Shown here: piece after piece, positions 2,965 to 3,738 of the stretch
How the letters are laid out: each line of letters opens with the position of its first letter
Numbering within the stretch: the stretch's first letter is position 1
Virus record (IMG/VR): IMGVR_UViG_3300029219_000180
Strand: one strand, 5' to 3'
Length of the DNA: 9,281 nucleotides
Source: a virus
Taxonomy: Duplodnaviria > Heunggongvirae > Uroviricota > Caudoviricetes
Notes under the pieces: model-generated
The model's database searches: none
The model's input: only the letters and a program-made list of their open reading frames with translations
Told to the model about the DNA's origin: nothing
Program-made: the position numbers and the translations under genes

Positions 2965-3738
2965 ATGGATATTACTGAGTTTCCTTCTGGAGTAATTGAA
3001 CACCTTGGCTGGTATGTATACCGATTGATTGATCCGAGGGACGGAAGCACCTTCTATGTAGGGAAAGGCAAAGGTAACCGCGTATTTGCCCATATGCGCG
3101 GTGAAGTGGCAGCGACTGATGATGACGAGTTACTGAGCAACAAGCTAAAGCAAATTAGAGAAATAAGATTAGCGGGACTTGAAGTTATCCATGTCATCCA
3201 TCGACATGGAATGACTGATGAAAAGACGGCGTACGAAGTTGAAGCAGCACTTATTGATGCCTACCCTGGGTTAACGAATATCATGAATGGTGCTGGCAGC
3301 AATGAATTCGGCGCCGCGCATGTCAAAGAGTTGATAGCAACATATCAACCCGAAACCATAACATTTCATCATAAAGCATTAATGATTTCCGTTAACAGAA
3401 GTGCAAAGGATTCAGAGCTTTATGATGCGGTTCGATTTAGCTGGCGCATTAATGTCTCTCGCGCCAGCCAAGCAGAAGTCATTCTTGCTACTGTAAGGGG
3501 GATCGTTCGAGGGGTTTTCATTGCTGATAAATGGCTCAAATCAACACGTGAAAATTTCCCTACGATGAAATACTGGGACGAGGATCCGGACTTTGAGGCA
3601 ACACAAAGTTCTCGCTATGGTTTTGAAGGTCGAGAAGCCCCACCTGAAATAGCAAATCTTTATCTTGGAAAAAAAATACCAGATGAATTAAGAAAAAAAG
3701 GAGCTATGTCCCCGGTCCGTTACTCACCTAATTTTTGA
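2965..3738 (+). CDS. GIY-YIG nuclease family protein with uncharacterised C-terminal extension (~257 aa)
   Basis: N-terminus carries the GIY-YIG signature: GWYVYRL (res 14-20), [14 protein letters not shown] (YVG...R...H), then [16 protein letters not shown] (conserved Glu and Asn region). Start chosen at the ATG at 2965 so the motif sits near the N-terminus; the ORF is open from 2914 (alternative ATG). No strong SD at either start. C-terminal ~130 aa not recognised. Confidence 0.75.

Follow-up and report, generated by a model that had tools for sequence, protein, structure and literature searches.

The window analyzed here, the whole stretch of 9,281 nucleotides of the IMG/VR virus record IMGVR_UViG_3300029219_000180 (Caudoviricetes), carries beside a pinE-type serine invertase a gene whose product is almost certainly CMoRE/PD-T4-3, a modification-dependent nuclease that, as its sequence leads us to expect, destroys the DNA of T4-like phages via hydroxymethylated cytosines. 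CMoRE, for “Cytosine Modification Restriction Endonuclease”, is the new name of PD-T4-3 (Liu et al., Nat Commun 2026, PMC12923530), and the protein is already known as a named, biochemically characterized and crystallized defense enzyme, widespread in E. coli. The open reading frame list gives an open frame from 2914 to 3738 on the plus strand, whose first ATG, at 2965, yields a product of 257 amino acids. E. coli strain 0H26 has identical DNA, in which RefSeq annotates the same 774-nucleotide coding sequence with the same start (WP_000355484.1, “LEM-3-like GIY-YIG domain-containing protein”), and the crystallized homologues start at the same methionine. The longer TTG start at 2914 was rejected, since the ATG is the start in both RefSeq and the crystallized protein. 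The features discussed below are collected in Table 1.

The identification rests on full-length matches in independent resources. PADLOC matched the whole protein to PD-T4-3 (PDLC04031, model positions 1-255 of 256, E=2.4e-140), and a sequence search of the PDB returned two distinct full-length matches, the E. coli O157:H7 protein (9U75/9U8D, E=3.7e-172) and the APEC O1 protein (9U7U/9U7Z, E=1.1e-150), both described in PMC12923530. The PADLOC and 9U75 E-values place the identification far beyond chance. Compared residue by residue, 253 of the 257 positions (98.4%) are identical to the 9U75 protein, the four differences being T51A, E55D, Q169K, and N197H, while 38 residues differ from the 9U7U protein (85% identity). 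PHROGs provided a further full-length match to phrog_5356, a family of unknown function (E=2e-143), and a search of NCBIfam with the 257-amino-acid protein gave no match. PD-T4-3 itself came out of a functional selection, as a lone gene from E. coli ECOR68 that encodes a GIY-YIG domain; the main text of Vassallo 2022 does not use the name PD-T4-3 and speaks only of “a GIY-YIG nuclease”, the ECOR68 details coming from later papers. The novelty that the initial annotation had implied for this protein is not upheld: its C-terminal domain goes unrecognized only by Pfam and NCBIfam, and the structure was described in 2026.

Table 1 Features of the window, followed by the homologue coordinates in two jumbo phages (residue numbers are those of the 257-amino-acid product).
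Feature	Position	Strand	Basis or remark
CMoRE / PD-T4-3 gene	2965..3738	+	257 codons plus stop; open reading frame list, PADLOC, PDB, PHROG, RefSeq
GIY-YIG nuclease domain	2965..3339	+	Pfam PF22945, sequence, alignment, Foldseek
“GIYxY-YIG” tyrosines Y17, Y19, Y31	3013-3015, 3019-3021, 3055-3057	+	read from sequence
R39, E93, N105	3079-3081, 3241-3243, 3277-3279	+	invariant in homologues
Acidic run D52-D53-D54-E55 in the inserted alpha2-alpha3 loop, autoinhibitory “safety catch” over the active site	3118..3129	+	sequence
C-terminal modification-sensing domain, residues ~126-257	3340..3735	+	
Y127	3343-3345	+	main-chain oxygen hydrogen-bonds the 5-hydroxymethyl group of 5-hydroxymethylcytosine in the crystal
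pinE-type serine invertase, convergent with CMoRE	3799..4353	-	Pfam Resolvase and HTH_7; 94% identical to K-12 PinE
488-amino-acid hypothetical protein WP_000723924.1	259..1725	-	~1.2 kb from CMoRE
173-amino-acid open reading frame	2041..2562	-	129 amino acids in the RefSeq version
Junction of two prophage blocks	~5200..5260		
Tyrosine-integrase gene	6136..7299	+	
3' part of a tRNA	~7321..7365	-	between the two integrase genes
Tyrosine-integrase gene	7421..8524	+	
229-amino-acid multi-pass membrane protein	8534..9223	+	phrog_26661 (unknown function), E=1.7e-153
CMoRE homologue, Serratia phage Moabite L005	2501..3265		
CMoRE homologue, Pseudomonas phage OBP L006	2492..3253		

The N-terminal half contains the clear GIY-YIG core that had been noticed from the sequence, with its motifs at residues 15-21 (GWYVYRL), 31-43, and 91-105. 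The sole Pfam domain in the protein is the GIY-YIG model PF22945 (LEM-3_GIY-YIG), which covers residues 28-110 with E=2e-14, and the Foldseek matches to this half are, after CMoRE itself, GIY-YIG domains of UvrC, with I-TevI also listed. The three-tyrosine “GIYxY-YIG” motif defined in PMC12923530 is present, as are H43 and the interface residues V92 and L96; the roles of the three tyrosines and of V92/L96 are known from mutagenesis (PMC12923530). R39 and E93 are the probable catalytic arginine and glutamate, which we assign here from their invariance, this numbering having no source in the text of PMC12923530. The acidic run falls within a low-confidence loop (residues ~45-55) of the AlphaFold2 model, and at the same loop position the O157:H7 protein has DDDD, while the APEC O1 protein shares the DDDE of this allele. 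In the published work, a 15-residue acidic loop covers the active site and “most” family members have a negatively charged loop; a 4A mutant, in which the loop's four acidic residues are changed to alanine, cleaves unmodified DNA and is toxic (PMC12923530).

Conservation was examined in an alignment of 34 homologues sharing 55-85% identity, drawn from Enterobacterales, Acinetobacter and many metagenomic lineages. Y17, Y19, Y31, R39, H43, E93, L96, N105, and Y127 are invariant and V92 is nearly so, and all ten are intact in this allele. The initial annotation had named non-conserved catalytic residues among homologues as the mark of a decayed gene; the invariance of these residues speaks to the opposite. 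Conservation is equally strong in the C-terminal and nuclease domains, and the former has more than 20 invariant positions, the aromatic residues Y153, W160, W190, F198, Y233, and Y253 among them. As for the four differences from the 9U75 protein, N197 of this allele is invariant across the family and Q169 matches its consensus; E55 preserves the charge, and the position of T51 is variable. A cluster of 1045 member sequences (P0001) has the identical protein at its head, and 838 of 5426 complete E. coli genomes contain the gene at >=95% nucleotide identity, usually in a single copy, which together suggests purifying selection.

More distant full-length CMoRE homologues, at 38-45% identity, are encoded by jumbo phages of ~250-285 kb: Serratia phages Moabite, 2050HW, and Kodama, Pectobacterium phage ParM-25, Pantoea phage Survivor, Pseudomonas phage OBP, and Klebsiella phage N1M2. 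Their depositors named them “homing nuclease” or “endonuclease”. The two that we aligned, from Moabite and OBP, retain Y17, Y19, Y31, R39, H43, E93, N105, and Y127 and are without the acidic DDDE run. These phage-encoded homologues may have a role in excluding competing phages with hydroxymethylated DNA.

The initial annotation had found no motif that could be assigned in the C-terminal half. This stands at the level of Pfam: over residues ~125-257, the profile search that it had proposed returned, even with the threshold relaxed to E<=10, no match to any Pfam family for this protein and 33 homologues. It does not stand against the literature and the PDB, where the domain, which belongs to no housekeeping family, is a solved and characterized sensor of 5-hydroxymethylcytosine (5hmC). 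Among predicted viral structures (BFVD), Foldseek detected the same fold in a protein of an uncultured myovirus, where it is joined to a PD-(D/E)xK nuclease (A0A8S5N646, E=2.3e-9, 25% identity over 131 alignment columns). On the strength of this predicted fusion, the sensor appears to be a modular cassette.

As for its ancestry, we tentatively raise the possibility, which we judge slightly less probable than an even chance, that the sensor is a highly diverged PUA-like reader of modified bases, akin to the EVE, YTH, and ASCH domains. The structures listed for it (scores in brackets) include the THYN1 EVE domain bound to 5-methylcytosine (5mC) DNA (5J3E, 5.5), the EVE-HNH restriction enzyme VcaM4I (6YEX, 5.4), several YTH domains (5.2-3.8), ASCH domains (5GUQ and others, 5.2 for 5GUQ), PH1033 (1WMM, 5.0), and the N-terminal domains of McrB (6N0S and 6P0G, 4.9 and 3.6). 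The N-terminal domains of Lon and of ATP-sulfurylase are also on this list, with ScoMcrA and AbaSI lower down. At the level of sequence, a Pfam profile search of the 34 family members gave no EVE, ASCH, YTH, or SRA match at E<=10, and the CMoRE authors likewise report no sequence homologue of the sensor domain (PMC12923530). Fusions of EVE and GIY-YIG domains were catalogued earlier as predicted type IV enzymes (Bell et al. 2020, PMC7641849), so a PUA-like architecture would not be unprecedented. If the domain is indeed PUA-like, the modified base is probably flipped toward the barrel upon recognition, in the manner of EVE and SRA enzymes, and the 5-hydroxymethyl-dCTP (5hm-dCTP) bound at the edge in the crystals may not represent the DNA-bound state.

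A large body of experimental information exists for close relatives. Genes from O157:H7, APEC O1, and Klebsiella make T2, T4, and T6 plate about five orders of magnitude less efficiently, in a direct defense that is not abortive infection (PMC12923530). The purified enzyme requires Mg2+ or Mn2+ and binds and cuts DNA containing 5hmC or glucosyl-5hmC, and neither cytosine nor 5mC; binding lies with the C-terminal domain, T4(hmC) is still sensitive, and T4(C) escapes (PMC12923530). Cleavage follows the consensus CN11/N9G, leaves 2-nucleotide 3' overhangs, and requires two 5hmC sites; near-identical proteins cleave all along the T4 genome with no strict sequence requirement, in dependence on base modification (PMC12923530). 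The enzyme is a tetramer, formed as a dimer of dimers, and its disruption by V92S/L96S abolishes defense (PMC12923530). A Capnocytophaga homologue (48% identical) degrades T4 DNA and not T4-GT7 DNA (PMC12366544), and the native gene of the clinical isolate NILS69 restricts Tevenvirinae (bioRxiv 10.1101/2024.12.20.629700). The suggestion, made from the DNA letters, of a modification-dependent anti-phage nuclease that takes its specificity from the C-terminal domain has thus been demonstrated experimentally for a protein 98.4% identical to the one encoded here.

This allele carries every residue and the fold required. We infer that it has the same activity as the O157:H7 enzyme, because only four conservative or consensus substitutions separate the two and every functional residue is intact. 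The C-terminal domain would sense 5hmC or glucosyl-5hmC in phage DNA, with one dimer, as proposed for near-identical proteins, reading two modified cytosines ~21 bp apart (consensus CN11/N9G). The N-terminal GIY-YIG domains would then cut between them in a reaction dependent on Mg2+ or Mn2+, leaving 2-nucleotide 3' overhangs. In this scheme, the acidic loop (DDDE here) would cover the active site, so that unmodified host DNA would be left uncut, and the expected outcome is the direct, non-abortive degradation of the genomes of T2, T4, T6, and related phages. The gene is also probably expressed, since native-promoter constructs of close homologues are active, with variable strength (PMC12923530).

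Several observations weigh against this reading. The Capnocytophaga homologue also cut phage Mu DNA carrying carbamoylmethyl-adenine (PMC12366544), and the published specificity is not fully settled. In the crystals, the 5hm-dCTP site lies at the edge of the domain rather than in a pocket, and the structures include no complex with DNA (PMC12923530). The APEC O1 gene gave only weak defense from its native promoter (PMC12923530). In the window, a simple scan of positions 2560-3900 detected neither a sigma-70-like promoter upstream on the plus strand nor an intrinsic terminator, and a clear Shine-Dalgarno sequence is not visible before the ATG at 2965. A promoter candidate picked by eye (TTGTGA, 17 nucleotides, TAATAT, at about 2903-2931) is weak and was not counted as evidence.

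The genomic setting is that of prophage cargo. The invertase is adjoined by a fragment of a tail-fibre tip and a tail-fibre assembly gene (tfa). In E. coli K-12, the e14 order is stfE-pinE-mcrA-prophage end, and the homology between the window and K-12 ends just past the pin stop codon; CMoRE therefore fills, in reversed orientation, the slot that the type IV enzyme McrA occupies in K-12. In O157:H7, CMoRE is also adjacent to pinE, and in strain p4A, a lambdoid prophage at ssrA carries the gene at its end, with a type II restriction-modification pair as neighbor. Its neighbors vary among strains 0H26, O157:H7 F6294, and p4A, as for a single-component system with no obligate partner gene. From this context, the gene is likely a horizontally shuffled defense “moron” in the slot beside the pin invertase.

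The prophage itself is a deleted composite. Positions 88 to ~5225 are ~100% identical to one set of strains and positions 5200-9201 are ~99% identical to the CPS-53-like yfdS/yfdT/xis/int block of others, and no complete genome contains the whole window. At the junction, not found in any complete E. coli genome, the pin/tail-fibre-tip/tfa block, which matches 0H26 and ECONIH4 at 100% identity, runs straight into the CPS-53-like DUF551/yfdT/xis/int block (~99% identical to other strains). This extends the tfa reading frame to 165 amino acids, from the 147 of strain 0H26, and the prophage lacks nearly everything between the tail fibre and the integrase. Further along, the tRNA 3' part (...GGTTCGACTCCTATTATCGGCACCA) looks like an attachment-site remnant marking the tandem integration of two elements, given that ARAGORN and Rfam detected no complete tRNA or Rfam gene in the window. 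A related genome has a 112-nucleotide “tRNA-Ser” annotated at the equivalent place.

This setting bears on the two other explanations that we weighed. A free-standing GIY-YIG homing endonuclease, which would have inserted itself here and would spread by cutting a specific cognate sequence, had been put forward in the initial annotation; it could call on a weak match to a PHROG so annotated (phrog_314, E=0.0021) and on the “putative homing nuclease” label that depositors gave to the full-length jumbo-phage homologues. Nevertheless, we consider it exceedingly improbable. At E<=10, Pfam detected no NUMOD, IENR1, or helix-turn-helix module in this protein and 33 homologues, the C-terminal half is the 5hmC sensor whose structure has been solved, and near-identical proteins depend on modification rather than on a strict sequence (PMC12923530). 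Moreover, the gene does not lie within or between conserved target genes but in a variable cargo slot at a prophage end with shifting neighbors, which is the behavior of a defense cargo gene and not of a homing endonuclease.

It is likewise very unlikely, if somewhat less so, that the gene has decayed or fallen silent, a remnant that has lost its expression or activity. The surroundings lend this idea some color, as the prophage is heavily deleted, its tail-fibre tip being joined directly to the yfdS/yfdT/int block, and the simple scan revealed no consensus promoter upstream. However, the frame is intact and full length, with the catalytic, interface, and sensor residues all preserved, and both the 1045-member cluster and the 838 E. 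coli genomes point to purifying selection. In addition, homologues in equally degraded prophages, such as that of O157:H7, are active from native promoters. The identification as an intact CMoRE is thus the one that we retain.

Among the neighboring genes, the 488-amino-acid protein is of interest in its own right. It had no Pfam, NCBIfam, PHROG, or PDB-sequence match, and PADLOC gave a weak match to LmuA (E=0.0036, residues 36-181). Its 120 homologues, nearly all of ~485 amino acids, come from Enterobacterales, Pseudomonas, Acinetobacter, Burkholderia, Vibrio, and Bacteroidota; the names given to a few read “DUF4297 domain-containing” or “restriction endonuclease”, and Pfam detects Mrr_cat in one. 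Invariant positions are E39, D73, and Q87-C88-K89, a signature of the PD-(D/E)xK type that is followed by a conserved region of ~350 amino acids. These features make the protein a candidate stand-alone defense nuclease. The gene is present in 30 of the 5426 complete E. coli genomes, compared with 838 for CMoRE, and a two-gene system formed by the pair was rejected on this ground. The 173-amino-acid reading frame contains a hydrophobic stretch resembling a signal or lipoprotein leader, and the multi-pass membrane protein is encoded just past the second integrase.

The fitting annotation for the gene is CMoRE/PD-T4-3, with 5hmC and glucosyl-5hmC as the specificity of this type IV restriction enzyme. 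Its presence predicts resistance of the source strain to T-even-like phages, which is relevant when choosing phages for therapy. The pin-adjacent end of e14-type prophages emerges as an exchangeable slot for modification-dependent nucleases, filled by McrA in K-12 and by CMoRE both here and in O157:H7. What is new is confined to two points, the sensor domain's possible PUA-like ancestry and the adjacent putative nuclease of 488 amino acids.

Compared with known systems, the protein stands closest to CMoRE of O157:H7 and APEC O1, with which it shares the family, the architecture, the GIYxY-YIG motif, the acidic loop, Y127, and the V92/L96 interface. T51, E55, Q169, and N197 set this allele apart from the O157:H7 enzyme, none of them at a known functional position, and the flank away from pin holds the 488-amino-acid putative nuclease and the 173-amino-acid reading frame here, whereas an AraC regulator is found in O157:H7. 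McrA (EcoKMcrA) of the K-12 cryptic prophage e14 is likewise a single-gene, type IV modification-dependent nuclease in the same slot beyond pinE, and it targets 5mC/5hmC in the CmCGG context (EcoSal review). It differs, however, in having an HNH nuclease, an unrelated N-terminal reader, and no sequence similarity to CMoRE, and in being co-directional with pinE, while CMoRE converges on pin. VcaM4I (6YEX), PvuRts1I/AbaSI (4PAR), and ScoMcrA (5ZMN) use HNH or Vsr-like PD-(D/E)xK nucleases, in contrast to CMoRE's GIY-YIG domain. With respect to enzymes of the EVE-HNH and SRA types, the CMoRE reader has no detectable similarity to the Pfam EVE, SRA, and ASCH models, and its published ligand site is at the domain edge and not in a flipping pocket. 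The catalytic fold is common to CMoRE, I-TevI, and the N-terminal domain of UvrC, the last being the best non-self match to the N-terminal half; to this fold, CMoRE adds a tyrosine (GIYxY) and an acidic insertion of 15 residues, with a modification sensor replacing the sequence-reading modules.
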